Shown piece by piece: positions 13,564 to 35,546 of a DNA stretch of 64,000 bases. The notes under the pieces were generated by a model. The model was given only the letters and a program-made list of their open reading frames with translations. It was not told the origin of the DNA and did not search any database. The translations under genes and the position numbers were made by a program. The number at the start of each line of letters is the position of its first letter. Positions within the stretch are counted from its first letter, which is position 1. The DNA is from Podarcis muralis (taxonomy: Eukaryota): the NCBI RefSeq assembly GCF_964188315.1, contig NC_135666.1, positions 25,544,001 to 25,608,000 of the forward strand, written 5' to 3'.

Positions 13564-14230
13564 CTGAAGATCTCAGGGCGGTTCACAGCATAAAAACACA
13601 AAATACACAATAAACCAAAAACAAACCAATAACCCCCTGCCTCCCACAAACACATATAAAATGACATAAAATGTTAATCAGCCAAAGGCCTGGTTGAAGT
13701 GGAGTGTTTTCACTTGGCGCCTAAATGGCAAGCCTCCCTGGGGAGAGCATTTCACAAATGGGGAGCCACTGCAGAGGCTAAAGGTAAAGGGACCCCTGAC
13801 CATTAGGTCCAGTCGTGACCGACTCTGGGGTTGCGGCACTCATCTCGCTTTACTGGCCGAGGGAGCCGGCATACAGCTTCTGGGTCATGTGGCCAGCATG
13901 ACTAAGCCGCTTCTGGTGAACCAGAGCAGCGCACGGAAACGCCGTTTACCTTCCCCCCAGAGCAGTACCTACTTGTCTACTTGCACTTTGATGTGCTTTT
14001 GAACTGCTAGGTTGGCAGGAGCAGGGACCGAGCAACAGGAGCTCACCCCGTCGCGGGGATTCGAATCGCCAACCTTCTGATCGGCAAGCCCTAGGCTCTG
14101 TGATTTAACCCACAGTGCCACCTGCATCCCGCACTGCAGAGGCTAGAGTGTCTGTATTTTCTGAGGAATGTTAGAGGCCTCTGGACCTCTCGTGGAAGGA
14201 GGCACATGAAGATGGGTCTCAGATGATGGT
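13564..14230 (-). mobile_element. L2-type LINE 3' fragment, interrupted by a Sauria SINE; its (TAG)n tail lies at ~13297-13319
   Basis: ctcagggcggttcacagc...ggagagcatttcacaaatggggagccactgcagagg, typical of the reverse-strand L2 3' end. Confidence 0.6.
13781..14130 (-). mobile_element. Sauria SINE (Podarcis POM-type), full length
   Basis: Tail aaggtaaagggacccctgaccattagg to head ...gccacctgcatccc; 14-bp TSD cactgcagaggcta (13767-13780, 14132-14145). Confidence 0.92.
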
Positions 14231-15190: not shown

Positions 15191-16199
15191 GTAAGTGTGG
15201 GGGAAAGTGTTATTTGTACTACTGTGGAATATGGAAATGGCATAGCAAAGTTAAATTGACTACAAAAACCGGATAATAGAAATTAAAACACACCTAGCTT
15301 TTTAGGAATGACTAGTGGTGGCTGGTTCTCATTGGGACTGATAAGGCAGAGGACAGGAAGATCAACATTAGATGGCGCTAGAGCCAATGACAAGCAAAGG
15401 CAACTGTTTTTGTCCCCATCTTCCTCCTCCCTGCTGAGTTCTGTAAAGCACAGCACAGAGATGAGCAAGCTAGCTGGCAGTGCTGCTCCCTGATTGGCTG
15501 TAAGTAGGAAAGCAGGAAGGTGGGAGCTGACTGAGGACAGGCTAAGGTTGGTGTGGCAATGCCCCCTTTATCCAAATAGACCAATTTCCAGTGCAAATGA
15601 TACAGATGCATTTAAAACACAGGGAAGTTGGGCTTACCAAACCTAATCCACTCCCTGATATCCCTAATACCTCCATGGCAGGAATTCCTTGCTTTGCAAC
15701 AGGTTGCTATGATCAGTGTTGCTATGACTGGCATGCTTGCCCACTGGTGCAGTGTCGAAGTCCCACATCATGCAAAGGTTTGGGCACAAGGAAGGCAGCT
15801 AGGCAGGCTGCAGCAGCAGCAGAAGAGGTGGAATATCTGGTCCTGAGTGCAACCTCCTCCTCCCTGTGATGTCTTGACTGAAATAATTTGGCAGCCTTGA
15901 CTGAAGAGCTTGGAAAGGGACTCTGTGGTAATGCACATGTCTTATATATACAAAGTCCCCAGTTCAGACCTGAGCATCTCCAGGTGGACCTGGGAAAGAC
16001 CCCTGTCTCCTAAAAGCCTCTGCCACTCCTTGTCAAGACAATACTGAGCCGGATGGAACAATAGGTTGACTCGGTGTAAGGCAGCTTCTGACCCCGCCCC
16101 CCTTCACGTTTCAAAGACATTTGTTCGATAATTTCAATCGGGGGTTGAGCCATGTTGATGGTCATGCTACACTTAGAAGAAAGCCTTTTCTAAAGGCAT

Positions 16200-16651
16200 T
16201 GTCAGGGAACTGCCATCGGCTCAGGGGCGAGAGGGGAAAGACCGGATGGATTACAGAGAGCCCCCAGAGATCGTGGGAAGCAGCACCTCCTCAGCGGAGG
16301 AGAGTAGCCACGCCTTTAGTGGAGAGGAGATGCAGGGCTCGGGGGAGGCGAGGCGGTGCCAGGACACTTTGCCTGAGCAAAGCGGGGAGGAGGGAGGTCC
16401 TCTGTTACCCACGCCTTCTTTGCGCAGTAGGCTTCTGCGCAGAGAGGGAAGGCGCAGATTGGGCGTCAAGAAATTACTCTGCTGGGGAAGGTTTAAGGAC
16501 CGCCCACTCTCAGATGCCAGTGAATGAGCAAGACACGGAATAGAGGTGCTCTGCATTCCAAAGGTTTTTATCACCGATAAGAAAGCTTTAAAACAGACTA
16601 TTGAAGCATATTGCCTGATTGCTCTCGAGCAACCAACCTATACCTCTTACA
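16200..16651 (+). mobile_element. Solo LTR (452 bp)
   Basis: TGTCAGG...CTTACA termini; 5-bp TSD ggcat / ggtat (one mismatch); GC and CpG richer than the flanking intron. Confidence 0.75.
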
Positions 16652-16689
16652 GGTATGCTTGTTAATGTTATTCTCTATTTGGCAAGTAG

Positions 16690-16861
16690 GTTCACAATGG
16701 CTTTGGTGAAAACGCACCTCGACTCTCCATGCTGTGTGGTTTGGTGGCTCCAGGGACTCAGGTGAAATCCTCTGGAAACAAGATAACCGTCGTCATGGTC
16801 AAAAGTCACGATGGTTTTGAGGCAAGCTTCAGAATTACATATGCTTCTGATGAAGAAGCAG
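16690..16861 (+). CDS. CUBN: CUBN exon (~ex49), CUB18 C-half, 172 nt (divergent)
   Basis: aagtag|VHNGFGENAPRLSMLCGLVAPGTQVKSSGNKITVVMVKSHDGFEASFRITYASDEEA G|gtaata; phase fits both neighbours. Confidence 0.88.
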
Positions 16862-18004
16862 GTAATAGAACATGTTAGGAGTTTTTGTTTTGTATTTGCA
16901 ACTTAACACTGACAAAAAGAATTAATATAAAGTCTGTTTAGCAGCTTTCTTTTAACATGGTACTTCTCTTTAAACTGACTTATATGAAGTTACAGTATTA
17001 CAGTTCTCTGCTTGCATCTTTAACTTGAAGTAGGAGAACTGGAGGTGAGGAGTAAAGGAAAGATGCTGTCTAATTTTTGACCTGCCCAATGAGTTGTCTA
17101 ATTAGGGCCTGCCCTATTGTTAGAAAAAGTGAAGTGGCCGCTTCGGGTCCTGATTTTGAACGTCATGAAAAGGTGGCAAATTCTAGTTATTTAACTTATT
17201 ATTACATTTTTATTCTCAGGGACAGGTAGTCATGGGATTTTCTGCCTCAGATACTGAAATAACACAACCAGCCTTGGATATTATGTACTTTGCAGTGAAG
17301 ATTCATTTGCTTTTCAGCCTCAAGCAGTGAAATGTCTTGAACCAGCCCTATCTCTAATACTGTGGTAGCCAACGCAACATCTGCGACATGTTGCCAGACT
17401 ACAATTCCCATCAGTGTTGACCTCTGACCTTACAGGTTGGTCTGATGGGGGTTGGATCCAGCAACGTCTGAAGGGCACCACATTGGCTACCTGTGGTAGC
17501 CAAGCCACTACTTCTGTGACATAGACTTTAATCTGACAGCTTCAACAGCAAGCTGTTTTGCCTCTGCTTCATTTATCCAGTCTTTAAAGGGCAGAGTAGG
17601 GCAAAATAATGTCAGAACTTGCCGTGCCTTTCTGGTATGTTTGGGCAGTAGAATGATCAACTCTTCAGGGCATTTTAGAAGAAGAGATTTTACCATGTTA
17701 TTTTTTCCCAAATGTGTTGCCTGCTTTGAGAGTTATGGAATAATAGCAGTACCAAGAATATCGGCCTGGTAATCAGTGGTAGACTAGTACCAGTATCAAT
17801 AGTGGAATGTGGAAGATTATCTTCGGCCAGTCATTGTCTCTCCACTTAACTCATCTCATACGATTGTTGTGAGAAAAAGTTGGGAAGGACAGAACCATGT
17901 ACACCACCTTGACCTCCTTGGAAGAAAGGTGGGGTGTGAATGTAATAAATAGGTAAATAATGAAATGTTGCCTTACTGTTCCAAATGGTGTTGTTTTTTT
18001 CCAG

Positions 18005-18211
18005 TGTGTGGCAGCCATCTACTCAGTTCAGGTGGTGGGAATCTCACTTCTCCTGGTTATGATGGCACCAGCAATTATGCAAACAACCTGAACTGTGAGT
18101 GGGTCATCCAAAATCCGCAGCCATCCATCACAACTCTTTATCTTCTCTTTGGAGATTTCAACTTGGAGCAGCACATCAATTGCCAGAACGACTACTTAGA
18201 AATCCGGAGAG
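18005..18211 (+). CDS. CUBN: CUBN exon (~ex50), CUB19 N-half, 207 nt
   Basis: ttccag|TG CGSHLLSSGGGNLTSPGYDG...NLNCEW...NDYLEIRR G|gtaagt. Confidence 0.95.
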
Positions 18212-19243
18212 GTAAGTTACAGCTGCCTGTAACCAGTAAATAAACAAGAAAGCAATTCTAGTGGGGAGCAGGTGTCAGTTTGCATTTCTTAGTGCAGAAA
18301 GTATTGGTCTGATGTGTAGAGATCTTTCCCATACAAATTAATTCAAGAGGGTTCTGGAAGCTTCTCTGTGTGAAAGAAACAAGCAAAAGGTTCATGATGT
18401 TTGTGTTGTACCTTCAGAGAAGCTGAGCACACCTGGCTTAAACTGGTTTTGTTATCTCTTGTGTCAAGATCATGCTGACTGTACAAGTAGGGTCAGAAGG
18501 AGCCTGGGTTACACTTTCTGTTTCCATCTCTCTTCCTTCTGGTGTGGTGTTCTGTGCATAGTATGCCTATTGTTAAGGTTTAGACTTATTATAAGTTATT
18601 GTAAGTTTAAGCCAAGTATGCTGCAACTGGATTTCTTATGGACAGTGCCAATCCTGAGTATATTGGATTTGTGACCATTATGCTCATTTGCCTTCAGTAG
18701 CAGTAAAGCTCTGCTAGTCTATTTTTTGGGAATCCTGCAATGTGCTTAAGTTGTTACTCTGCTAACTATACATTGAAATCTACTCTGGATCAATATTGAG
18801 TAGAATTTCATGACAGGCAGCAGGAGAATAGTTGTGGCGAATGAACAGTCAAATCCGAAGCTCTACTGGGCTCCTCCTTTTCCCTTTTCCTGCGAGGAAT
18901 CTTATTCGAAATAAGGGAATTTCCCTTTAAAAAAGGGAAACGTTGACAGCTATGGGTCCAGTTGATCCCAAGCTGCCCTTGGAATGCCTCCTTTTACCCT
19001 TTCTTATTTTGTATTTCATTTTATTCATCGGACTATAACAAAAGTTTTTCCTAGCCAGAGAGGGCCAAATGGTGCAGTCGTGCATACACTTTTAAACTGT
19101 GATTAAACCATGGTTGTCAATTAATAATAGGGACATGGGTTCAAGAAGCCAAGGTACTGCAACAACTTTGTGTCTTTGCTTGTTTTGAAGGGAGTCAAGT
19201 TTAGCTGGCTTTAGATATTTCATAGTACCATGTTTCTATTTAG

Positions 19244-19393
19244 GGGATTCTGATGGAGAGCTCTTATACCGACTATGTGGCCACAGCCCACCTCAGCATC
19301 CACTGCTAATAGCAGCTCCTCAGACCTGGATACAATTTTTGAGCAATGATCAAAATACAGACAAGGGATTCTTCATCCACTATGGATCTCTGG
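19244..19393 (+). CDS. CUBN: CUBN exon (~ex51), CUB19 C-half, 150 nt
   Basis: tttag|GG DSDGELLYRLCGHSPP...WIQFLSND...KGFFIHYGSL G|gtaagt. Confidence 0.93.
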
Positions 19394-19827
19394 GTAAGTT
19401 TCACGTTACTTTTACTGTGTATGGTGATTCTAACAGGTAGTACTGAAGGTGCAAAGCAAACACCTGTTTTCTATTAATAAACCATGACGTGAACCCAATA
19501 GTCTTGCTTAACCATGGTTTGTTTGGACACCCCATCCCAAATGTTTGTCATTGTACAAATGCACAAGGCAAGAACTGCTGGAAAACAAATCAAGGTTTAG
19601 GGAAAGGGACATACCATGTTTGCTCATCTGTGAAATGGCTTGTGGCTTGTTAAAAGATATGGTTAAAACAAACAATGGCTTCCTGTTATATGTGAATGCA
19701 AGCAATGCAAGTGAAGTGTGTTCCCCACCCCCACCCGACCCAATGAAACCACCTAGGAACTGGCATGTCTGCATTTTCTATGAGCCAATGAACAAAGCTT
19801 CTTCAAATATCTCAAATTTTATTTCAG

Positions 19828-19949
19828 CCTGTGGTGGTGTGATGGAAGGTGAAAGTGGAATTATCTCTAGCCCTAACTACCCAGCACCTTACAATAGTTC
19901 TAGCCATTGCTCCTGGCTCTTGGTAGCACCAGAGGGACATACCATCAAT
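19828..19949 (+). CDS. CUBN: CUBN exon (~ex52), CUB20 N-part, 122 nt
   Basis: tttcag|CC CGGVMEGESGIISSPNYPAPYNSSSHCSWLLVAPEGHTIN|gtgagt. Confidence 0.95.
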
Positions 19950-20036
19950 GTGAGTAATGCTTTTTTCATCAGCTTATAATAAAATAAATGGGTGCATTTT
20001 TTATCCGTAAGAACAAGGCGAGTTTTACATGAAGTA

Positions 20037-20278
20037 CAGTGGTACCTCGGGTTACAGACGCTTCAGGTTACATACGCTTCAGGTTACAGACTCTGCTAAC
20101 CCAGAAATAGTACCTTGGGTTAAGAACTTTGCTTCAGGGTGAGAATAGAAATAGCGCAGCAGCGGTGCAGCGGCAGCAGGAGGCCCCATTAGCTAAAGTG
20201 GTGTTTCAGGTTAAGAACAGTTTCAGGTTAAGAATGGACCTCCGGAATGAATTAAGTACTTAACCCGAGGTACCACTG
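20037..20278 (-). mobile_element. Tc1/mariner-type MITE, copy 2 (inverted relative to copy 1)
   Basis: TIR cagtggtacctcggg / cccgaggtaccactg; TA TSDs. Confidence 0.9.
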
Positions 20279-20408
20279 TACTCTAATTGAGAGTATGGCT
20301 GTCATCATGCCCTCAGACCACCCACTTGACTCCTTCCAAGACCCTCTGCCCCTTCTAATTTTTGTTGTATATTTTTTAAATGAACTGTTGTTCATTTTTT
20401 GCAATGTT

Positions 20409-20434
20409 TGTGTGTGTGTGTGTGTGTGTGTGTG
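20409..20434 (+). repeat. (TG)13 microsatellite
   Basis: Read directly. Confidence 0.95.
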
Positions 20435-20960
20435 CTATTTTTGTCTGTTTTGTTTGTTTGAGGGGAGTGTAGGTGTTTTACCTGTTTTGGGGGAGAGGGG
20501 CAGTGCTGAGCATCACCAAATGGGTACATTTTGGTGTGCACAACAATGTGTTTCCAGATGCGTTCACCAAAATGCTGGGTTCCCCTGCACTAAGCTGCAT
20601 TCATCTCACCAGCAAATACCTGCAGCTCAGTACATTTCTCTTTTTTTTCCGTTTGCCTGGGATTAGAAAAACAGGAGGCTGTTAAACACCTTGGAAGCTA
20701 CAATAAAAGGTTGGTGGGTTGTGTTTGGCTTGGTTCTATTTAGCACTTCCTCCTAAATAAAAAAGAAAGTAAGACAAGTAAGTGAACTGAGCACATTATG
20801 ATGTCTGTTATGCTGGAGTAAAAATGAGGACAAATAGATTATTTTATCATATTAATCTATTTGTATTAGAGCTTTTAGCAGACTGAGATAGCTCTGTTTC
20901 TGATGCATTTTTGCAAATACTATTCTATGTTCATGGTCATCTCTTATTGCTCTCCCACAG

Positions 20961-21186
20961 CTTACTTTTGTGGACTTTGAAATTGAAAACCACAGGACCT
21001 GTAGATGGGATTCGGTCACCATTCTGAATGGTGGATCTCCGAGTTCTCCTGTCATTGGACGATACTGTGGAACTTCATCACCAGGCACCATTCAGTCAGG
21101 CTCCAATCAGTTATTAATAAACTTCAATTCCGACCACTCAGTGCAGGGAGATGGTTTCTATGCAACATGGACTGCAGACTCTTTGG
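20961..21186 (+). CDS. CUBN: CUBN exon (~ex53), CUB20 C-part, 226 nt
   Basis: ccacag|[27 protein letters not shown]...[16 protein letters not shown]...L G|gtaagc. Confidence 0.96.
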
Positions 21187-21649
21187 GTAAGCAGGAAACC
21201 ATTATAAATTCCTTCCTTCTAATGCATAGCATTGACTGTTGTGAAGTAGGATTTCTCCACCTTCCTCCATCTCTGGATATGGCAGTGGACAGGGAAATGT
21301 CTCCATTGCTGGAATAAAGAACAATTTTAATGAAGTTTGATAGAGATAAAATGCATGTATACCATGGGCAAAAAATAGCTCCATCTTCCACCTGATTGTC
21401 TTAGGGCCCATTTTCATGATCTGCATCAGTGGGGTAAATGCTCCTTAAGCTATTGTTGAGATCTTGGCACAGAGACAGGGAGAGCTGAGTGAAAGCACTT
21501 GATAAATGCAAACTCTTTGTGAATTGCCTGTTAGTGGACTGCTGCACACAGTCAAGAAAGATACTCTGATATAGGGAGTTATTAATAATACACTTTTCAG
21601 AGTATGCTTCATAAGTCATACATGACTTCTTTTGGTTACAAATGGTTGG

Positions 21650-21817
21650 GAAAGTAGAGAGCTGCCTTGGACCATTGGTTCATCTAGTTTTGTATTCCGC
21701 ATTAAATGGCAGCAGCTCTCTGAGGTTTCAGAAAGCTCCACCTGGAGATGCCAGGGATTGAACCTCAGACTTACTGTATGAAAAGCATGCGCTCTGCCAC
21801 TGAGTGATGGTCCTACC
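21650..21817 (-). mobile_element. tRNA-derived SINE
   Basis: Reverse-strand head tcactcagtggcagagc (box A) ... ggttcaatccctggcatctccagg (box B). Confidence 0.6.
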
Positions 21818-21961
21818 TCCAACAGTCAGCAGAAGAAGCCACTGCCATCTGACCATGAATCCATACCTTTTCACCAGCAAAAAGATTGTGCAATGTGATC
21901 TTCCATCCAGATGCATGCATGCATTTTTTACTCATTCTATAACCCTCTGTCATTTTTGCAG

Positions 21962-22149
21962 GATGTGGGGGCATCCTTCATTCTGAAAATGGCACCATCC
22001 ATTCTCCCCACTGGCCCCAGGACTTTCCTAGTAACATTAGGTGCTCGTGGACAATAATTACCCATGAAAGCAAACATTTGGAGATTACCTTCAATGAGAA
22101 TTTCCAGATTCCAGATAGCTATGGGCAGTGTCAGAGCAGTTATGTGAAG
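21962..22149 (+). CDS. CUBN: CUBN exon (~ex54), CUB21 N-half, 188 nt
   Basis: ttgcag|[31 protein letters not shown]...CQSSYVK|gtaagt. Confidence 0.95.
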
Positions 22150-23394
22150 GTAAGTAAATATCAATATTGTCAATATTGTCAATATTATGGACTCTGGTAA
22201 GTGTAAGTATAGTTCGCTAGCCAAGCAGTTTTAGGCTGGTGAAGCAGGTCTAAGGATTGAGGTAAGTAGAAGTACTGACTCTGTAAAGCATCCTACTTCC
22301 ATGCTGAGGAGGCTTCTGTGGTGAATTTTCCTGTCTGCCCACAGATGTCCCACTCTGGAGGTGGACAGACAGGTCAACAACATCCAATGGCCCCTTGGCA
22401 GCCCTCCCAGGGTGCTTAGAATTGGTCCCTAAGCAAGGGTCTTTTTGGAAAAACAAGGCCAAGTTATTCACATTTTATACAAAAAATAATGACAGAAAAA
22501 CACTCCAGTCTGTGCCTGCTTCTACATAAACTGATATGCATTCTGTATCAGAAAACCTGTTTCTTTAATGTTGCTTTATCAAATACCTGAAAGTGTTCAG
22601 GAATAACAAAATAATAATGTATACTTCATTGGCTGTTAAAGATCTGCTTCTCTGGAAGACACTTGAAGAGAAGGGGATGTTTGGCATTCCTTAGAGCCTA
22701 ATAGTTTTCTAAAGAATTTGGCAGATGTTGTGTGTTGTTGTTCCCAGACTGTGCAAAAGCACACAACTCCCACTTGTTCATAAAGGGCAGGCATAATTTA
22801 TCATCATGTAGGAAGACATGAGCGGCTGGGTTATTGCTCAAAGAGGGCCAAGATGGCATATATTTATAGAAGCAATGGGAATATACCTTGGCCAATTTAG
22901 AGTTCACGTTTCAGCCTACTGAATGGGATAGAGTTTGAAGATGTTAATTGAAATATGCTTTTGTGCACAAGAGATCCTCGGTGGGGGATGCAGAAATCAG
23001 AAAGGATTTGCCCACTGTGGCTCTTTTGGTGAAGCATTCAATGTGCCATTAAAGAAAGCAATTTGATGCCTTTCCTTTTGAAAAGGGAAGCTGTTGCAAA
23101 CACACAAGAGCTGTACTAGGCCTTTGGGAATACGAAGCCAGGTTCTCCAGGTGTCTCCACCAGCAATACCTGTGTATTAATAACCATGTTCAGCACAGTT
23201 TGAACTAGTTGACCTTAATGGATTTTAATAGGTTTTCTCCCAGAATGAAAAGCTCACCCAAGCAGGGTTAGATTCAAGAGTGAATTAACACACTGTTAAT
23301 TCCACCACCTCCCTGGTCTAAGTTTGAGGCTGCATTTGAACATTTATAGATGATTTCAGGTCTTTCTTCCTCAGTTATGCACAGTACATATAAA

Positions 23395-23530
23395 CAGTGC
23401 TTTTTTCTGGGGGGGACACAGGGGTACACATACCCCTAAACACTTTGTGAATCTAAGTTTGGCCTTGGTGAAGGGCAGTATTTCAATATGAGTAGGAAAA
23501 TGAGGGTACATTTTAAGAAAAAAAGCACTG
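23395..23530. mobile_element. hAT-type MITE (CAGTGCTTTTTT family), copy 1
   Basis: TIR cagtgctttttt / aaaaaagcactg; perfect 8-bp TSD catataaa. Confidence 0.9.
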
Positions 23531-23939
23531 CATATAAATTACTGTATTTTTCTTTCCTAAAATATATTAACAGCCTGAAACTGACACTAGCAGGTAAATT
23601 AAGGAAATACTGTACCAGCGAGTACACTGAGCTTTGAGACTTAACAGTGCCATTGAAAAGCTGAAGTGAAAGGTGCCGTCTGTAAGATTTCCTCCTAATT
23701 GTTCCCCCCCCCCCACCATTCACATTTTGAAACCTGGTGCTACAATCAGGGTTAGGGTGTTGTGACAACTGAGAATGGGTGTTTTTATTATATGAGTCTG
23801 TATGAGTCTAACATTCTACTGTTTTGCTGGCCTATATGGTAAAACCAGGATTGCCATAAACTGTTTGGAGCTGGTGTAAAATGAAAATCCGCACAAGGTC
23901 TTATTTAGATGTTCAAAAAAGAGTAACCCTTTCCCCCAG

Positions 23940-24099
23940 GTGTTGAGAGGACGTGATAATGAACAGGAAGATGCAGTATTAGCTGTTGGGTGTGGAAATT
24001 CAGCTCCCGGACCTATTGTTGCGCCAGGAAATGTGATGACAGTAGTGTTTCAGTCACAGGACATCCCAGGACGTGGCTTTTCTGCATCTTTTATAAGCA
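23940..24099 (+). CDS. CUBN: CUBN exon (~ex55), CUB21 C-half, 160 nt
   Basis: cccag|VLRGRDNEQEDAVLAVGCGNSAPGP...VFQSQDIPGRGFSASFIS A|gtaagt. Confidence 0.93.
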
Positions 24100-24109
24100 G
24101 TAAGTAAAT

Positions 24110-24640
24110 CAATCAATATCAATCAACCTCTTTATTATGGTCAATGGTCAGTATTAGAAAAAAGAAACTTCGTAAAATACGGTATATAAAATAAAGTATT
24201 AGTATTAGAAAAAAGAAACTTCATAAAATATATAAAATAAATCCAAGCAAAACAAAATAGAGAGCCATAGCGATAAAATTACTAATAACTGTATTGTACT
24301 ATAAAATGCCAGGCACAGAATAGAAAGCAAAATTACAAATATGCTAAAATAAGTCCTTGGAGAGTTTTATATTCAGCAGCACAATATTTAGCCTTCCTGG
24401 AAGAGGTAGATGCATTCTGGTCTTAAAGAAGTAAAATGCGGTAAATAATTCTGAATCCGAGGATTGCTGTGATGATCTACATCTGAAGCATCATCTATAT
24501 TGGAGGTGTAGCTTAGGTGCTGGCATACCTGGATTGGAAACTGATTAGGATGTAGGCCTCTATATTGTTGGCACTGTTTATTGGGAGGTTAATTCAAACT
24601 GTGTCAGTACAGTGGCATCACAAATGCAGAGGATAGGAAT
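24110..24640 (-). mobile_element. Degenerate LINE 3' end (RTE-X/L2-like) starting just after a CUBN donor site
   Basis: tcaa-repeat tail plus acctctttatt; internal duplicated agtattagaaaaaagaaacttc. Family assignment is tentative. Confidence 0.35.
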
Positions 24641-25345
24641 ACTGTAAACGACCTCCCTTTCTCCACAGAAGCTCCATTTGTGTCGGTGTACTGGGATACT
24701 AACCAAATCTGATAGGCTTGATACACTGATGCAAACTGATGGACCCATATCCCAGGGTATGCATGGGGTGGAGATATAAGTTCAGTTGTAGCTACGCCAC
24801 ATCACATTGCAAGTGGAGGCTCACAAGAGTAAATCCTCTTTTATAAAAAATATTATTTACACACAGACAACTAAATGTCTAAAGGAGAACAGTTCCGGTT
24901 TTGCACACTTTCTCATTTGCTTGTTGTCTATATGCAGGAATTATCTTATTTGACTGTAGAGGAATATACAGACACATGAGACCCCACCTGAGGATTGAAG
25001 TGGGAACTAGGATCTTAGATGTATTGGAATGAGAAACATGACACAATTGTCTTGGTTCTATTTTTAAAAAAATACTAGCAATAATCGTTAGCTGCTTGTA
25101 AATCAACTTAAGCATTCATTTGGATGGGTAGAGGATAAATAATAAAACTAAACTGACATATTTTAATTTTTTTTTTTACTTTAATACCTTTCCAGAACAT
25201 GCACTGAGACACTTTATAGGCTGCAAAAAGTGGGAAGTTTTTACATGTCCTTACCATTCTGTCCTTATCCCCAGAAATCACATGGAGATAATTGATTTTG
25301 AACTTTTTCAATGGCAGCAGACTGTGTTTCTTTGTTTACATGCAG

Positions 25346-25495
25346 GGTGTGGAGCGAACTTCACTGCCCCATCAGGTCGAATTGCCTCTCCTAACTTTCC
25401 CCATCAATACGACAACAACATGAATTGCAGTTATATCATAGAAGTGGAACCACAGTCCATTGTCATCCTACGTTTCCAAACGTTTGGTTTGCAAT
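25346..25495 (+). CDS. CUBN: CUBN exon (~ex56), CUB22 N-half, 150 nt
   Basis: atgcag|GG CGANFTAPSGRIASPNFPHQYDNNMNCSY...FGLQ T|gtaagt. Confidence 0.95.
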
Positions 25496-25749
25496 GTAAG
25501 TGACAGAAATGTTAATCCTTTCACCTCAGTATTTACCAAATTGTGAAAACGTTCCCTCTGGAAGAATGAATGTGTCTAAAGGCATATTCTGAGCAGGTAT
25601 CAGCTCCTGGAAATCTTGGGCACTTGCTGCAGTGCTTTCCCAGCAGCACAGCACAGCCCACAGCCCAGATGTCTGTCCTTGGCCCTCACATTGAGTAGGC
25701 AGATCTGGAGTTGCCACACTGATGTATCAGACTTCCCTACTCACATATA

Positions 25750-26007
25750 CAGTATTTTTTGCTCTATAAGACTCACTTTTTCCCTCCTAAAAAGTAAGGG
25801 GAAATGTGTGACCGTCTTATGGAGTGAATGCAGGCTGCGCAGCTATCCCAGAAGCCAGAACAGCAAGAGGGATTGCTGCTTTCACTGTGCAGCGATCCCT
25901 CTTGTTGTTCTGGCTTCTGAGATTCAGATTATTTTTTTCTTGTTTTCCTCCTCCAAAAACTAGGTGCGTCTTATGGTCTGGTGCGTCTTATAGAGCAAAA
26001 AATACGG
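25750..26007. mobile_element. Tc1/mariner (Tigger-like) MITE with an internal hairpin
   Basis: TIR cagtattttttgctctataagac / gtcttatagagcaaaaaatacgg; TA TSDs; internal IR cagaagccagaacagcaagagggattgctgc / gcagcgatccctcttgttgttctggcttctg. Confidence 0.88.
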
Positions 26008-26633
26008 TACATTGTTTAAGGCAGTGTGGAAAATGAAAACTGGGGTGCAATTCTAGATGAAAAGGATTTCAGAAGCATCCATAAAGTAAGAAAAAATTCA
26101 GCAGCAAGTAGTTACTTCCGTAAAGCATTAGAGGAACAGTAAAGGAGTCACTTAGAAGATTAGTGTTCCTATTTATCTTTTATGAGGCCTCCAAGACCAG
26201 CTGTCTCTAAACAAACGGTTTCGTTCATTATCTGTGTTTGCAAGGATGTCTTATAGCTCAAAAGTGTTCTCGGCTCACTCTAACCAGAAGGATACAGAAC
26301 ACACTGTATCACAAATATTTAGTTGAAATTGAGCACACAAGGAGTGGGAGATGATTCCTAAGAGATGATTCACTCATCTTGGCATGTGCTTGTATTTTGG
26401 AAATCAGAAACAACTGTACCATTGTGCTGGCTTGTGCCACTCCAGATTATTACTTTCTGGCTAGCTTCTTGTTTACTACAAAACAAGAAACAAAACTGCA
26501 GTCCTGCAGCAGGCAAGAATGTTATAGCATGATCCACTTTAGGGTTTCTTCATATATAAAAAATAACCTGTAACCAAGAAGTTTGAAAAAGAGATCAGTT
26601 TTGAGAGAAAGGAAATTTGAAATATATATGGGA

Positions 26634-26669
<36 letters not shown>

Positions 26670-26688
26670 GTATATATATGTATATATA
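26634..26688 (+). repeat. Compound (CT)n(AT)n microsatellite
   Basis: Read directly. Confidence 0.9.
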
Positions 26689-26970
26689 ATTATCCTCTGA
26701 TACCGTGTTTGGTTTTCTCTTCCTTAAATTAAATGAAGGAGAAGATCTACCTGTCTTTGCCTCTGACCCCATTCACTTTTTCCTCTGCCTCCACCCACCA
26801 TTGGCAGGTGCCCCCCTGAAGGCTGAAAAAGTTTCCCGCTCCTGCTCCACAAGTAGTGTCCTAGTTTGGTTTCTATGATGGTGTAAATTGGCTTTAAAAA
26901 AGTACTTAGAGGATGGGTAAACAGTTCCACAAAATATTGATGAACCGTTCTAAATTTTTATGCCGTGCAG

Positions 26971-27168
26971 CTCATAATGCCTTAGGAGATTGTGCTTATG
27001 ATGGAGTGAAGGTCTTCAGAGGGGACAGAGCTGGCCCTTACCCCGAAGAAACGTTTTGCGGCAATGAAATCCCTCATCCTATCAGCATCGTTGGATCCAC
27101 ACTGTTGAATTTCTACACAGATTCTCATACTGTTGGCGTCGGATTTCTGGCCACTTACGCAGCAATCC
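26971..27168 (+). CDS. CUBN: CUBN exon (~ex57), CUB22 C-half, 198 nt
   Basis: gtgcag|CT HNALGDCAYDGVKVFRG...FCGNEIP...LLNFYTD...GFLATYAAI C|gtgagt. Confidence 0.93.
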
Positions 27169-27632
27169 GTGAGTAGCAACACATTGTTGGTGGAAACAAC
27201 ATGTGTTTCTATGCATCAGGCAACAAAATGATGCCCTGGAAGAAGACCTAACTATCCCTTGACTTTCTGGGTTCCTCCAAATTTGTAAAAACAAACAAGA
27301 CACCAACCAATGAAAAACCTCACCCATTTTCGGAACCACTGCTTAGAGAACAATTTTAACTAGGGCCAAGGGGTAATCCGTGTAACCTGTATGGGCATCT
27401 GTAGTCTAAGGATGCTATCCAACTAATGCATCCCATCAGACAGTGCAAAGATATGCACTTGCCCAATAGAACTTCTCCCTTTTCCTCCTTGTATGAATGC
27501 CCTGTGGTCTTCCTGCAAATCTGCTCCATAAGGCTGGGGGAACCCCTGGAACAGATTTAGGGGGCATGTGAGAGAAGAGAGGGAGAAGTTCCATTGCTCA
27601 AACAGAAATCCTTGCACTGATGGAGCCCATTA

Positions 27633-29021
27633 CAGTGGTACCCCGCAAGACGAATGCCTCGCAAGACGGAAAACCCGCAAGACGAAAGGGTTTTCTGTTT
27701 CGGAGGCGCTTCGCAAGACGAATTTCCCTATGGGCTTGCTTCGCAAGACGAAAGCCCATAGGGAAATCTCCGGGGACCTGTTTTAAATTGCTGGCGGTCG
27801 GGAGCAAAGACTTTCGCCCACAGCCGGCCTTCAGAAGAGGTCCTGGACCTCTTCTGAAGGCCGGCGGGGGGCAAAAGTCTTTGCTCCCCCCCGCCTGCCT
27901 TCCCGGGACAGCGGAGACTTCTCCGCTGCCCCGGGCGATCTTAAAATGCTGGCGGGCGGGAGCGAAGCGTTCGCTGCCGACCCCCAGCATTTTAAAATCT
28001 CCCCGGGACAGCAGAGAAGTCCCGCCCTGCTCCAGATGGCCGCGCAAAGCTGCCTGCAGTCGCGGGACTGCAGGCAGATCTGCGCCACCATCCCGAGCGG
28101 GGCGCTAAGTCCCGCCCCGCTCGGGATGGCGGCGCAGAGCTGTCTGCTGTCCCGGGATCAGCGCAGCTCTGCGCGGCCATCGGGAGCCGGGGGCGAAGCC
28201 CGCCCCGCTCCAGATGGCCGCGCAAAGCTGCCTGCAGTCGCGGGATTGCAGGCAGATCTGCGCCACCATCCCGAGCGGGGTGCTAAGTCCCACCCCGCTC
28301 GGGATGGCGGCGCAGAGCTGTCTGCCGTCCCGGGATCAGCGCAGCTCTGCGCGGCCATCGGGAGCCGGGGGCGAAGCCCGCCCCGCTCCAGATGGCCGCG
28401 CAAAGCTGCCTGCAGTCGCGGGATTGCAGGCAGATCTGCGCCACCATCCCGAGCGGGGTGCTAAGTCCCGCCCCGCTCTGGATGCCAGCGCAGAGCTGTC
28501 TGCCGTCCCGGGACTGCAGGCAGATCTGTGCCGCCATCCTGAGCGGGGCGCTAAGTCCCGCCCCGCTCTGGATGCCAGCGCAGAGCTGTCTGCCGTCCCG
28601 GGACTGCAGGCAGATCTGTGCCGCCATCCCGAGCGGGGCGCTAAGTCCCGCCCCGCTCTGGATGGCGGTGCAGATCTGCCTGCCGTCCCGGGATCAGCGA
28701 AGCGTTCGCTGCCGACCCCCAGCATTTTAAAATCTCCCCGTGTCCCGGTGAGATTTTAAAATGCTGGGGGTCGGCAGCGAAGCCCTTGTTCCCCCCCAGC
28801 CCCCCCCCCAGCCTTCAGAAGCCCTTGTCCCCCCCCCCCCAGCCTTCAGAAGAGGTCGGGGGAGAGACTGTCCCTGGACCTGGTCTGAAGGCGGTTTCCC
28901 TTGGAACGCATTAATTGATTTTCAATGCATTCCTATGGGAAACCGTGCATCGCAAGACGAAAAACTCGCAAGAAGAAAAAACTTGCGGAACGAATTAATT
29001 TCGTCTTGCGAGGCACCACTG
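27633..29021. mobile_element. Non-autonomous Tc1/mariner-type DNA transposon (1389 bp) with an internal palindromic array
   Basis: TIR cagtggtaccccgcaagacgaa vs reverse complement cagtggtgcctcgcaagacgaa (20/22); TA TSDs at 27631-27632 and 29022-29023; subterminal cgcaagacg repeats; no transposase ORF. Confidence 0.9.
28021..28697. repeat. GC/CpG-rich tandem array of 88/90-bp self-complementary units
   Basis: Unit starts at 28021, 28111, 28199, 28289, 28377, 28467, 28557 and 28647 (spacing 90, 88, 90, 88, 90, 90, 90). Confidence 0.95.
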
Positions 29022-31437
29022 TAATTGGATATCACCCTATGAACGCTTGTTGCGAAGCAACCCCTTCTGTGATCACCATGGCTTAGCTACAGGTAAGTAA
29101 GCTTAGGATTTCATCCTTGGTTTCAGAGTTAACTGTGACATATATCACACACAAAGCACTCCTCCTGTTTTCAGAAATAATTGTCATAAAACGCTCAGGA
29201 TTAGCCCAATGCCAAATAAACAGTTCAAGGCCATCTCTTTTCATTGTGTATATCCCACTGACAATGAAGCAAAATGACCCTGAATGCAATGCCGTGTTTT
29301 TAACATTTGCATGATTCAAGGTTCAGTGCCAGAATGGGATTCTAGCAAGCAGTTTGCAAAACAATTTCCCCTCTGCTTCTCCTTTGCCACTGAAATGGTG
29401 GAATCCGGAATGGAGAAATCCATGTGCACACATTCAGCATATATCTGTGGTCATTTTTTTAGTGAGTTCTTGTAATTTTTTATCATCATCGTCACATTTC
29501 CAGGGTATACATTTTTAGTAAATTTTATGCATCCTATAAAGCATTATTCTTGTTTGCTCTTTTTAAAAACTTCCTGTACATTAATCTCATTTGGGTCTCA
29601 TAAGAAAGCCCCTATGAACACTTTAGTTTTATTACATATGAATTTACTTTGCAAAGATCACATAGTGCAATATTCTCAAAGACAAACTATCCAATGCCCC
29701 TGGGATTGAGCTAATGGAAGTGTCTAGTCCAGTATAAAATATTCTAGGCAGGGAAGAAACTAAACCCTCATCCTTTGGATGTGAGAGTGGCTTCTGAGTC
29801 AAAGAAAATAGCTAGGCCCCAGCTACCTCACAGACCTTGACAATGGGGGAAAAATTTTTGTTTAAGACTTAAACAAACGTTGGGCTGATAACAAGTATGT
29901 GAACCTCATTTTTTTGTACCAGGTAGTATGTTCCGCTCCTTGCCATAGCCTTGAGAAATAGCTATTTGCCTCAAAGCATGAAATCAAGTATCATTGTTTG
30001 AAATGAGTCATCCTGAGAGCTACTGGCTAGACGGAATACCATTGAAGGATGACGATGTTAATTTACTTGTGAAAGAGGCCTTCATAACTCACTCAAATTG
30101 GCTGCTGCCACCTGACCTTTGACTCCTGACATTTGTGAAGTATGACTAGTAGCTTTTTACTGGCTTTTTGGCCCATGCAAAACACATTCTAGCCATGAAC
30201 ATTCTGTTTCCTTCTAGCTTCATCCTTCACAAAAGACAAAAGGGGGAAGAAGAGAGAAGCTTTTCTCTCCTTGCGTACCATAAGCACTGCTTTTTTAAAA
30301 CCTCTTGTGCTTTTGTCTCTTATTTGTCAACAGTCCAAAGGGCAGCGCTCGATAGACGCCACCCTACCGTAGCTGAAAATGAGGAATGGGAGCCTGGGCA
30401 TTCATTGCCTGTTAAAGAATTTGCTTTGCAATGCTAGTGGTTTCTGCGATGACTAGTCCTTTAGAAACTTGGACAGCAGTGGGTTTGGGCGATTTGTCAA
30501 GAGAGAGCCCAGAGTGGTTGACTGCCAAATGGAAGACTATAAAACAGAGCACAATGGTGGTCACAGATGGTTTTGCAGAGAGCTGCGAACCAGAGGACAA
30601 AGACTGAGCCACCTCTCAGACTCCCAATGGCATCCATTATGGAGAATAAAAAAAAGAATGTACTGTGGCTTCTGCCGCTGCAAATTCTTCAGTAGATCTT
30701 AAAGCGGGCATTAACTTTCATCCTGAGGGAGCCATGCAGCAGTTACAAAGCCACTCAATCACACTCCACCTCCAAAAAGTTGGGATCTCCTACTGAATCC
30801 AACTGAAGGATTTAATGCATTGCAAAGCCTTTCCCATGCACCAGTGAAGTAATCAGGGACACAGGAAACAACCATCACTGTGGCTCAAATAATTAAAGAA
30901 ACCAACGGTCTCCTCACATATGAGCCTCTGTGGTCATCAGGAGATGGCCTCTTTTGAACTGGGGCAGCCTCTCTGTGGAACTCTGTCTCAGGAGATCCAG
31001 TGAAAGCATTTTGCCACCTACCCGATGGCATTGTTGTTTGGGCAGGCCTTCAACCTCCAGGCTAAGTGCTCACTTTCTGCTGGTTCTTTTTTTAAAAAAA
31101 TATATGTAACTTTTATGAATTGTTGTGTTTCATCTGCATCTTCTGTTGTACTTACCATTTTACTTTACTTTACCCATACTAGTATTTGTTGTATTAAATG
31201 GAGTACGCTGGTTTTTAACCATATAACAAATTATATATATACTAGAATGTATACCTCCATGTTGCCCTCCAGATATTGTTGGACTCCAACTCTGAAGGAG
31301 CAAATGAAAGGGATATTTGACCAGGTATCAACAAAATAGACCAGCGCTTACTCCATTTTAGTGAAACCCTAGACCCAAAGTATGTATGGCAAAGAGGTTC
31401 TTCAGCAGTAATGATAATCTTTTGCCTTTCACTGCAG

Positions 31438-31567
31438 CTTGTGGCGGCGTATTCAACAGCTCTCGGGGTACAGTCAGGAGCCCTACCCATTCATTTACTG
31501 AGTACCATCACAACATGAATTGTTCGTACTACATCACTGTCAGAAGCAACAAGATAGTGGCACTCAA
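31438..31567 (+). CDS. CUBN: CUBN exon (~ex58), CUB23 N-part, 130 nt
   Basis: ctgcag|CT CGGVFNSSRGTVRSP...HNMNCSYYITV...VAL AA|gtatgt; phase 2 matches the next exon. Confidence 0.93.
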
Positions 31568-31620
31568 GTATGTAAGCCAAGAGCACTTTTCAGTTTATGA
31601 TGAAAAAATCATGGTCTCTA

Positions 31621-31660
31621 GGTTTGGTTTGGTTTGGTTTGGTTTGGTTTGGTTTGGTTT
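31621..31660 (+). repeat. (GGTTT)8 microsatellite
   Basis: Read directly. Confidence 0.95.
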
Positions 31661-31734
31661 TAAACTGCTATAGTGACAGCAAGCATGGGAATTGTTAGTG
31701 CTGTGGGACCTAAAACTGTGCACACACTATATCT

Positions 31735-31860
31735 TTAAAGCATATTCAGAGTACATTCTTTCCCTCAAAGAATTCTGGGCACTGTAGTTCACCTCTCACA
31801 GAGCAACCCTTAACAAGCTACAGTTCCCAGAATTATTTGAGGATAGAAATGGGCTTTAAA
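31735..31860. mobile_element. Squamate hairpin MITE (tttaaagca...gctttaaa; actgtagtt/actacagtt core); second copy at ~46140-46270
   Basis: Inverted termini and inner arms visible in both copies. Confidence 0.5.
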
Positions 31861-32478
31861 GGTATGCAGCCAATCCTATGGAAGTTTACTTCCAAAATAG
31901 CTTAGCTGCACCCAGTGTGATTTGTTTCCAAGTATATGTAGGACTGCAATTTTATGCAACTTTATTTTTAAGTCAGTGCCATTGAGTTCAGTGGGACTTA
32001 TTTCTGAATAACCTTACATTGGATTAGGATGGCAGTTCTACCGTTAAGTGCTTTTTCTTCAGTCCAGAACCTTTCCCATTTAAAAAAAAAACACCCAAGA
32101 AAAGTCAGAATGCCACAGTGTTTGAATTACGATCTGATATTTAGTCACCCACTGGAAACATTTTTGTTTCACTAAACGTTTTTGAAGAGTAGATACGTTT
32201 CAATGTTCTTCATTTGTTTTGTGTTTTATGATACTTTAATCATATTTTTCTTGCATGCTGCCATGATTGTTTTTAATGAGCTGAAAGTATATAAATATTC
32301 CCGTAAAGAAATAAAATACTAGTCCATTGACTATGCTGGTTGGGGCTGATGAGAGGACGCCATGTTGGCCACACCAACGGAGACTGATATCTGTTGCCAC
32401 TATTATTTATCCCCAAATGCATTTTAAGAAAAGCAGGACTGAAACAACCCTACTTATTAGTAAAAATGCCCTTGACAG

Positions 32479-32696
32479 GTTCAACAGCTTCCACCTTGAA
32501 GCATCCTCATCTTGCCACAAGGATTCTGTTACTGTGTATGATGGCCTGAACATATACGCTCCCCTCCTGGGCACGTTCTGTGGTGCGGCCCTCCCACCTT
32601 CTATCAAGAGCTCCGCAAACAACTTGCTCCTGCTGTTCAGGACTGATTCCTCTGGAACAGCCAATGGATGGAGAGCATCGTTCAGAGAGACACTAG
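32479..32696 (+). CDS. CUBN: CUBN exon (~ex59), CUB23 C-part, 218 nt
   Basis: tgacag|G FNSFHLEASSSCHKDSVTVYDG...FRTDSSGTANGWRASFRETL G|gtaaaa. Confidence 0.95.
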
Positions 32697-33277
32697 GTAA
32701 AAGGAATGGCCAAAGGGAATTCTCCCAGCACCTTCAATGCAAGCCAGCTGCTATGAAATAGCATGGGTTATATATAGGAAATCTTTGCTACATTTTCTTT
32801 TCTTTAGGTGCGTCATTTGTGTAAACCTAGACTGGCATATCCGTGAATGCTTAGCACCTTAGTAGACCTGAAGTACCCTTTTTATACTCATAGTGAGGGT
32901 AAAGCATAAAGGTTTAATATTATTTAGTCATTCTGCCCAGCCTTACCTTCATGTGCAGCAGAATGAAGTGGTAGGATCCTGAGCTCTCAGCGTGAACTGC
33001 CCCACACTGGGGGCAGGGAAGCACCAGATGATTGTTTATGAATGTTTTCCTATGGGGGTAAATCACACACAAACACACACAAGAGTGGGTTGGGCCAGAA
33101 CATATGTGCATGTTTTTCTACCTTGCAGGGAAGCTTTTTGTTGCATGGAGAAGCACTCAGAGGTGGTACCCTCGACAGGAGTGGTCAAGCCCACTTGAGA
33201 AACTCAGCATGTGTCCACCTCATTTCAAGCTTCGTGCTATAAAAACATTATAATTGGTTATTCCTAATGTTAATTAA

Positions 33278-33627
33278 GGGATGCGGGTGGCGCTGTGGGT
33301 TAAACCACAAAGCCTAGGACTTGCCAATCAGAAGGTCGGCAGTTCAAATCCCCACGACGGGCTGAGCTCCCGTTGTTCGGTCCCTGCTCCTGCCAACCTA
33401 GCAGTTCGAAAGCACGTCAAAGTGCAAGTAGATAAATAGGTACCGCTCCGGCGGGAATGTAAACGGCGTTTCCATGCGCTGCTCTGGTTCGCCAGAAGCG
33501 GCTTAGTCATGCTGGCCACATGACCTGGAAGCTGTACGCCGGCTCACTTGGCCAATAAAGCAAGATGAGTGAAGCAACCCCAGAGTTGGCCACAACTGGA
33601 CCTAATGGTCAGGGGTCCCTTTACCTT
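33278..33627 (+). mobile_element. Sauria SINE, full length
   Basis: Head gggatgcgggtggcgctgtgggtt, tail ggggtccctttacctt; 11-bp TSD aatgttaatta (33266-33276, 33629-33639). Confidence 0.92.
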
Positions 33628-33907
33628 CAATGTTAATTATACAGACTTTAATTCAGCCTTCTTATGACAGTTGAATAGATCAGTGATAGGCTGAAAATAG
33701 CTACCTACCTGTTCTTCTTTTGGTAATTCATTGGGGTTTTGCAGGGTGGGGTGGGGTGGGTAGACGGGAGTAACTCCCTTAACTTTTTGTCACTTTGTCA
33801 TAAAGCATTTATGTCATAGCAGAAATATCCTTAACACTCAGCCATTGTACACATGCACACACCACAACCACAGCCGGCAGCTGTTTTTCATTTGATACCA
33901 TCTAAAA

Positions 33908-33984
33908 CAGTGGTTCTCAACCTGTGGGAATGATGGGAGTTGTAGTCCAACAACATCTGGGGACCCACAGGTTGAGAAACACTG
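33908..33984. mobile_element. Minimal hAT-type MITE (77 bp)
   Basis: TIR cagtggttctcaacctgtggg / cccacaggttgagaaacactg (20/21); perfect 8-bp TSD atctaaaa. Confidence 0.9.
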
Positions 33985-35043
33985 ATCTAAAAGGAATACA
34001 GCGATAAGGAGTATATCTGGAGTGCCACCTTCTCTATATTACAAGGTCATTGTGAAATTAAAGTGCTGCTTCCTCTTGGAGGAAGGTTGGATTCTGGATT
34101 TTCTCTCTCCCTCAAAGGTATGTTAAAGAACTCTGCTTAAATCTAGATCAGGCTTCACCAACCAGGTGCCCTCCAGATGCGTCAGACTACAGTGCCCATC
34201 AGCTCCAACCAGCAGAACTGCATTGACTGTGGCTGATGGGTGTGGCAGTCCTGAACATCAGCAGGGCACTTTGGTGATGAAGGCAGATCTAATTTCAAGT
34301 AAAGCCAGAAAGCTCATGGGAAATTAATCTTGTGAAAGGAGCTCCATCTCATCAGCCAGAACAGAAAGGCCAAGAGGTGTTGCATTAGTGCAGTATCTAC
34401 AGGGCAAATGTGAAACGCAATTCTTCATTAATGTTTAGCAAGTGTACACCACCCTGGCTGTGTTAGTGAAGTGAGATTGGCTAATGTGATTACTGTGTTC
34501 TGCTTAATGTTGTGGGTAGTCCTAATTAAATCTTGGGAGGAGGTGAACACAAATGGTAAACTCATTTGGAGCAATCTAAACATTCCTGATTTCCTTCCTT
34601 CAAAATCCTGCCCCTTTTCATCAATGGTTACTTATGCTTTTTGCACAGATGTCATCCAAAATAAGGTTATCTCTACTTCATCTTTTCTGGATTATTATTA
34701 TTATTATTGATGAGCATTTTGTTGACATGAAAAGAAGCTATAGGAATTAATTAGAAAAAAATGAGAAGAAACAGCATCATGCAATTTAACCAAAACAACT
34801 TCTTTTTATTAGGGATACTGCATCAGTAGGGTCTCATCAATACTGTCATTTAATGTGGATGGTAAGCTTCTATACCTCCATTTTTTATCCACCGTCGATA
34901 TGAATTCTCCTCCAGATCACTGCACTCCCATACTTTCCCCTCCTTCAATCCAGATTTTTTCTTACCAGGCATACACTGAGAAAGATAAGGTCTGTGAAAA
35001 TCCAAACCAAAGAAGGGGAAAGTGTGGGAAGGCAGTGGCTTGG

Positions 35044-35546
35044 TGTCAGGCTCCTGGGACTTGGCTTCCTCCCCCCCTTTGGCCGTAGATAAGCAGGACA
35101 AAGCAAAAGGAGTCCCTTACCATTTAAAGAGTCTTTAATGATCACAGCAAAAGAACAAAGCATCCATTCTTGGAAGGAAGGTGTTCCCAATAAAGGATTC
35201 CACCCACTTCCCCCCTAGTCACTTCCATCTTGCAACCTGATCTTGCAACCACCTTGTGTTTTGTGTTGCCACCTTATCTGCTCTACGTGACCTTGGACAG
35301 ATAGGCTGAATACTTTCCAGCAAGAGAGAGTCTGTTAGCCCTCTCTCTTCCTGTTCTAATTCGCTTTGCTGTTCACCCCCCAGTTCTTCCCAACTTTTGT
35401 CTTCAGAACTATGCCCCTCTTCAAACCACTGTTCCAAGTCTATACTGCTCCACTGCTCCTGGACAGTTTCAGGATCCTGGACAGGAGCAGGGGGAGGCTC
35501 CCACCATTCCTTCTCAGAGCTGTACTCCTCAGCCTGGTCTCTGACA
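35044..35546 (-). mobile_element. Solo LTR (503 bp)
   Basis: TGTCAG...CTGACA inverted termini; perfect 5-bp TSD cttgg (35039-35043, 35547-35551); ATTAAA on the minus strand near 35134-35139. Confidence 0.88.

Follow-up and report, generated by a model that had tools for sequence, protein, structure and literature searches.

An LTR-encoded C-terminal Pol tail, probably under selection, in two squamate chromovirus lineages that left solo LTRs in Podarcis muralis

A stretch of 64,000 nucleotides from the Podarcis muralis genome (contig NC_135666.1, positions 25,544,001 to 25,608,000; hereafter, the window) contains two solo long terminal repeats (LTRs), each with an open frame of 108 codons that starts at LTR base 2. 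Comparison with longer copies led us to the view, to which we assign a probability of about 0.9, that both frames are the LTR-encoded C-terminal tail of Pol, that is, of the integrase, in two related squamate chromovirus lineages, and that the tail is under selection. An integrase tail that extends beyond the polypurine tract (PPT) into the LTR and that selection maintains had been proposed, as one of two options, in an initial annotation made from the letters of the window, and this arrangement is seen in longer copies of the parent elements.

The first solo LTR belongs to a chromovirus family that we call A (16200..16651, + strand, sense to the host gene). It runs from TGTCAG to TTACA and is flanked by a 5-bp target site duplication (TSD) with one mismatch, GGCAT on the left (16195..16199, + strand) and GGTAT on the right (16652-16656), so that 4/5 bases agree. 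The second belongs to family B, subfamily B1 (35044..35546, − strand, antisense to the host gene), and runs from TGTCAG to CTGACA between perfect copies of CCAAG (35039-35043 and 35547-35551). The TG..CA ends and 5-bp duplications bear out the placement of both LTRs in the initial annotation. Both frames are also free of stops and translate as described there into 108 amino acids (aa) plus a stop. The family A frame (16201..16527, + strand) encodes an acidic Ser/Gly spacer followed by a conserved basic C-terminal block that extends from codon 67 to the stop (16399..16524, + strand). The family B frame (35219..35545, − strand) encodes acidic motifs containing Trp, then an SPR-x-RR basic segment, and has no Met.

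The motifs thought to be shared by the two peptides deserve comment. Both peptides do start with V-R, because the LTR end TGTCAG is read from base 2; the shared EPP cannot be aligned and was given no weight. A BLASTP comparison of the A peptide with the B peptide yielded no alignment. Equal length was considered as a signal and rejected. Among the 30 best family A loci, the first stop is found at codon 109 in 15, at codon 108 in one (the window copy) and at codon 107 in one, and the natural stop is reached in only 4/30 family B loci, at codons 108 (the window copy), 111, 112 and 112. Relatives thus have mostly 109 codons in A and 111-112 in B, and the warning that the equal length might be a coincidence was correct.

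A first look at the genome detected 748 candidate copies of the family A LTR (closest copy, 94%) and 1287 of the family B LTR (closest copy, 89%). For each family, 40 candidates were scored and 30 loci were fetched; most of the fetched copies are solo LTRs, as shown by target duplications that match fully or nearly so. A pattern search for a G-rich tract followed by an LTR start revealed a recurrent junction, with many instances on one contig (C20). DNA upstream of the family A LTR encodes gag, protease, reverse transcriptase (RT), RNase H, integrase, SH3_Tf2-1 and Chromo domains. In one element (L099) the pol order is protease-RT-RNase H-integrase, and PF00385 and PF24626 score above cut-off in L099 and in P0003. 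Copies with two LTRs span 3.1-5.7 kb, their paired LTRs are 95-97% identical, and a 5.65-kb element of this kind is filled by gag and pol, with no env. TG..CA LTRs, a PPT, a 5-bp target duplication and the lack of env are marks of chromoviruses, and on their sequence the parents of both LTRs are chromoviruses (Ty3/Gypsy) of the Tf1/sushi type. Elements with internal sequence lie mostly on contig C20 of genome G000 (30 Mb), where they are often nested with other retroelements; this contig may be a non-recombining sex chromosome.

The pol gene of family A is ordered as integrase, SH3, chromodomain, an acidic linker of ~100 residues, PPT and LTR frame. The PPT is read as ..EEGVD, the LTR is entered at base 2 (VRELP..), and the stop is found near LTR nt 330. 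Junctions were usable in 29 of 30 loci. In 10/29 junction copies, no stop interrupts the frame from the chromodomain up to and including LTR codon 107; four of these copies are near-identical, and one is open only via two offsetting shifts. The base-2 frame has no stops over 107 codons in 17/29 copies, while the other sense frames are stop-free in 1 and 7 copies and the antisense frames in 0, 2 and 3. The stop codon is common to 27/28 readable copies.

Coding sequences that overlap the U3 region of the 3' LTR are well known in HIV (nef) and MMTV (sag), where they encode separate proteins with their own start. The lizard frame differs from them in being the end of pol. A separate accessory protein made from U3, either from its own start codon or from a spliced RNA, was nevertheless an option raised in the initial annotation: an in-frame ATG is found at codon 16 in subfamily A1, and a second product would be compatible with the selection signal (see below) if this is considered alone. 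However, the codon-16 ATG is missing from the other A subfamilies, the B peptide lacks Met, the frame is continuous with pol, the transcription start site inferred below lies downstream, and no joints were detected in RNA reads, at low depth. We consider an accessory protein highly improbable.

In families B and C, the pol domain order was drawn from tblastn matches, and copies carry a chromodomain motif. In family B and related families the PPT follows immediately on the chromodomain. A strict pattern search for B-type PPT junctions found none, and a looser one gave 4 sites, of which 1 was real. Examination of 18 loci from families B, C and D yielded 14 readable junctions. In 8 of these, one of which was read by eye, the base-2 frame keeps the register of the chromodomain. 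In an integrase tree that kept 17 database rows (one row of <140 residues was dropped) and had no named reference elements, A and B/C/D form sister clades. A shared origin of the read-through is therefore plausible, though the tail sequences cannot be aligned. Similar B2-type chromodomain-LTR fragments form a cluster on contig C7 of the same genome (78.11-78.46 Mb; L114, L116, L118, L121-L123 and L128), which is probably a tandem segmental duplication.

Every test of selection on the frame was made on actual genomic copies. A codon model (tree-based omega) was fitted to 25 non-redundant family A copies; omega values in this model are raised by neutral decay after insertion. Omega was 0.26 in the chromodomain, 0.63 in the linker, 0.64 in LTR codons 1-36 (2dL 5.9) and 0.40 in LTR codons 67-109 (2dL 34 against omega 1). 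Values past the stop (1.15) and in the other frames of codons 67-109 (1.23 and 1.37) were above 1. Ratios of nonsynonymous to synonymous differences (pN/pS) were also computed for 170 pairs of family A copies that are less than 75% identical. In the pol frame they amounted to 0.22 in the chromodomain, 0.35 in the linker, 0.71 in LTR codons 1-36, 0.91 in codons 37-66 and 0.37 (0.25-0.49) in codons 67-109, with 0.89 past the stop and 0.86 and 1.29 in the other frames of codons 67-109. When 28 copies of B1 were compared with 19 copies of B2, pN/pS over codons 1-108 was 0.41 (0.32-0.52), compared with 1.12 and 1.18 in the other frames and 1.63 past the stop; these ratios are uncorrected, as Jukes-Cantor-corrected dS was saturated. 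Within B1 all three frames gave similar values (0.69-0.79), as expected of decaying copies.

Synonymous divergence in codons 67-109 of family A (pS = 0.63) is as high as in the chromodomain (0.59), which indicates that the constraint acts on the protein and not on the DNA. This observation bears on a second alternative, namely that the frames are open by chance in purine- and GC-rich LTR DNA and that their conservation comes from promoter elements. The first 330 nt of LTR A have 60% GC, subfamily A1 has further long frames (frame 3 and one in antisense), and the last codons of the frame overlap the self-primer described below, a real constraint on DNA or RNA. In 3000 dinucleotide shuffles, some frame among the six was open in 20% of trials for A (4% for B); the base-2 frame was open in 2.5% for A and 0.3% for B. 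However, the other frames are closed in other subfamilies, and an excess of third-position changes is seen in the pol frame only, with 0.29/0.20/0.49 changes at the three codon positions in A codons 67-109 and 0.44/0.38/0.61 between B1 and B2. The selection tests largely refute the idea of chance frames, and we give it next to no weight.

The copies in the window are ordinary among their relatives (pN/pS of 0.38, rank 6 of 30, for A; 0.83, rank 23 of 29, for B), and selection must therefore be ascribed to the parent elements: the early suggestion of a selected frame holds for these, and does not hold for the two solo copies themselves. Such copies might, alternatively, have been domesticated, giving rise to peptides or to exons of the surrounding gene. 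This gene has at least seven CUB-domain exons on the + strand (7/8 tested frames; window 3696-45623), and both LTRs lie between exons; we take this multi-CUB gene to be cubilin-like. The B copy is open even though only 4/30 close copies are, and LTR A is in sense orientation between exons. The ordinary pN/pS values speak against domestication, and so do RNA data: in four runs from unspecified tissues, with 6-13% of each run sampled, 0/149 reads placed on LTR A were ≥99% like it, and none covered its flanks. Hence, we regard domestication as barely credible, and the two window copies are likely silent fossils.

The site of transcription initiation was approached through the primer binding site (PBS). 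In the five family A elements that have a 5' LTR and a PBS (5/5), LTR nt 306/307-316 are complementary to PBS bases 3-13; the pairing involves 10-11 of 11 bases counting G-U, the best site is always LTR nt 306/307, and the PBS and its LTR site covary between subfamilies. The corresponding self-primer site in the window, complementary to the family PBS, is 16506..16516 (+ strand), at codon 102 of the frame and at the putative U3/R boundary. Self-priming of this kind, in which the RNA's own 5' end pairs with the PBS, is described for the Tf1/sushi group in the portions available of two reports (PMC4600332, PMC6317226). From the sequence, we infer that family A transcripts start at LTR nt 306 (window 16506). 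With a start at codon 102, transcripts from a solo LTR would not contain the frame; nearly the whole frame would be U3, and the only RNA to contain it would be the full-length transcript, at its 3' end. A search among sequencing runs listed no RNA run with a match. Comparison of raw RNA runs with LTR A and with a family A 3' end retrieved mostly reads from other LTR copies; these revealed neither joints nor start sites that could be used.

Several observations weigh against the view that both frames are selected Pol tails. Neither LTR peptide matched a Pfam family at E≤1. Register is lost in six of the 14 readable B/C/D junctions, in most cases at a G-run whose length varies, and three of the junctions that keep it are neighbours on the same contig. 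Subfamily B1 is in register at only 1/3 junctions, and the case for family B therefore leans more on the selection test. No family B 5' LTR with a PBS was found, and the transcript start proposed above concerns A only. In the codon model, LTR codons 37-66 of family A are near neutral (omega, 0.91), and the pairwise ratios rest on pairs that are not independent. Lastly, RNA reads are sparse on the internal part of a family A element, and the case is made at the level of sequence.

The sequences themselves show the domain order, purifying selection between subfamilies that is confined to the pol frame, and a pol frame that crosses the PPT, enters the 3' LTR at base 2 and ends ~110 codons further on. 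Production of the tail can be envisaged as follows. Because a start at LTR nt 306 follows the first 101 codons, the tail would be translated from full-length RNA only. It would remain attached to the integrase after protease cleavage and may be disordered, acting through short motifs: in a fold model the chromodomain is predicted with confidence, residues 111-117 form a short helix, and the remainder lacks order. In the conserved end of the A tail, LLCW-x-(K/R)FK follows a basic block. By analogy, the basic block (codon 67 to stop) is likely a nuclear-import or chromatin-binding segment, and the tail likely helps the integrase to reach target chromatin; titles cited in PMC3605345 report a C-terminal nuclear localization signal in the Ty1 integrase. 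Recombination between LTRs would have left solo LTRs that carry the frame passively, without upstream pol or a conserved start codon.

Related tails are found in database proteins. Two independent entries end in the A tail, including LLCW-K: P0005, which is 49% identical over linker and tail, and the more distant P0009. Chromovirus proteins from an amphisbaenian (P0023) and a viper (P0153) end in tails of 97 and 116 aa, respectively, that are first acidic and then basic, and a junction-like motif suggests that these tails lie in LTRs. In many other chromovirus Pols, only 10-25 aa follow a junction-like GGG-x-V motif. Recurrent SPEY, SPEF or SPVF ends are observed in P0027, P0035, P0085, P0104, P0128, P0136, P0138 and P0146, among others. 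These sequences suggest a short conserved LTR-encoded tail in other chromovirus lineages; the short-tailed relatives are presumably from fish. The simplest reading is that an old, short read-through expanded in squamates into a spacer and a basic motif that would bind nucleosomes or serve in nuclear import.

The chromodomain and linker of family A are also unusual, as illustrated by a copy located elsewhere in the genome (L097:8647-9279; P0004 residues 50-185). Alignment with HP1 places N/W/E at the three positions of the methyl-lysine cage that are occupied by the aromatic residues Y/W/Y in HP1, in 9/9 readable copies out of 10; without cage residues 1 and 3, the family A chromodomain falls outside Group I. 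The full cage is present in 7/7 readable copies, out of 13, from families B and C. Chromodomains that lack these cage residues were described in 2013 as detected only in plants, in the text available of that study (PMC3605345).

Before the PPT, the family A linker contains two segments made of a helix, an acidic stretch with Ser/Thr, and FxGF. In P0004 the motifs are FVGF at 127 and FRGF at 180, the acidic linker has ~9-10 residues, and the helix at 111-117 is predicted at low-to-moderate confidence. The F, G and F positions agree in 27-29 of 28-29 copies. In the accessible portions of the literature, the TFIIS N-terminal domain-interacting motifs (TIMs) that bind LEDGF/HRP2 consist of a helix, an acidic linker of 8-16 residues and FxGF (PMC9987994, bioRxiv 10.1101/624023); judged from its sequence and predicted helix, the family A linker has this anatomy. 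The same build is reported there for the TIMs of JPO2, IWS1, KMT2A and JIL-1, which are cellular, while here it would belong to a retrotransposon integrase and binding is putative. A search of PDB sequences with the FxGF linker gave nothing at E≤10, a result that is uninformative for so short a motif.

FxGF is present in 8/151 database tails, and the cage could be read in 91/152 database proteins. The full motif is carried by 6 proteins, all of them without both cage residues, and by 0/82 of those that keep the third cage residue; 3 proteins without both residues also lack the motif. As the 6 carriers appear to be one lineage (3 are in the tree), the association counts as one event and not as a correlation. 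A tentative proposal, which we would put at somewhat less than even odds, is that the end of pol in squamate chromoviruses, including two thirds of the LTR, is a modular targeting tail: family A and its kin would have lost the cage and gained two FxGF motifs that mimic cellular LEDGF/HRP2 ligands, and would be tethered to transcribed gene bodies like lentiviruses, though through mimicry of a motif, while B/C/D would have kept the cage and acquired no such motif.

A pol gene that runs into the 3' LTR is already known in plant chromoviruses. In CRM group A and in Beetle and Bingo of Beta vulgaris, as far as the available sections describe, the gag-pol frame also crosses the PPT into the 3' LTR (PMC3059260, PMC3605345), and Bingo1-4 and 7, which show this, belong to clades in which the chromodomain precedes the PPT, as in the lizard elements (PMC3605345). 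The LTR-encoded part of CRM group A holds the CR motif, a putative targeting domain whose partner was unidentified in the sections at hand (PMC3059260). The lizard elements differ from CRM, as portrayed there, in their vertebrate host, in a chromodomain kept upstream of the PPT, in a tail that is acidic and then basic, and, for family A, in self-priming instead of the use of tRNA-Met. With the chromodomain upstream of the PPT and, in family A, a self-complementary PBS, they lie outside CRM, and their likeness to it is one of layout.

The V-clade of the Tf1/sushi group (Sushi-ichi, Amn), in the excerpts available, shares with the lizard elements a domain order ending in GPY/F-SH3 and chromodomain (PMC6317226, PMC4600332, PMC3601003, PMC3670739), LTR ends of the form TGTYA..TNACA and, with family A, a PBS complementary to part of its own LTR; one of these reports also records chromoviruses in squamate genomes (PMC3670739). 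The lizard tail is, however, ~110 aa long, compared with 10-25 aa in many database relatives, and family A has in addition a linker of ~100 aa with two FxGF motifs and a chromodomain without cage residues 1 and 3. Lentiviral integrases are the only viral mimics of LEDGF ligands named in the accessible part of a review (PMC9987994). In the literature consulted, no description was found of a long squamate tail or of FxGF in a retrotransposon integrase; Repbase/Dfam, Butler 2001 and Gorinsek/Kordis 2004-2005 may mention them. What appears to be new is the long, selected tail of squamates.

Other features of the window can be briefly described. The promoter of the next gene may correspond to a GC-rich island around 49900-51000. 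An array with 66% GC (27572-28797), made of internally palindromic units of 90/178 nt, bounded by 57-nt inverted arms (27954-28010 and 28741-28797) and without a Pfam match, resembles a foldback element or a non-autonomous DNA transposon. An interspersed repeat of 300-350 nt is present in three copies ~90% alike (13780-14130, 33278-33627 and 50931-51281).

Outside the window, the last ~90 residues of a UniRef entry from Podarcis muralis annotated with a SEC7 domain (P0006) are the family A LTR frame. This is probably an artefact of the gene model, and possibly a case of exonisation. LTR frames do get absorbed into lizard gene models, and they should be read as transposon remnants.

The C-terminus of a retrotransposon integrase decides landing sites. 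The elements described here provide a vertebrate lineage with a plant-like layout and measurable selection and, with thousands of candidate solo LTRs, insertion sites alone could serve to test target choice. Lentiviral integrases bind LEDGF through the catalytic core rather than through a motif of the FxGF type. Should the FxGF motifs of family A bind LEDGF/HRP2, a non-retroviral element would have made convergent use of a cofactor of HIV integration.

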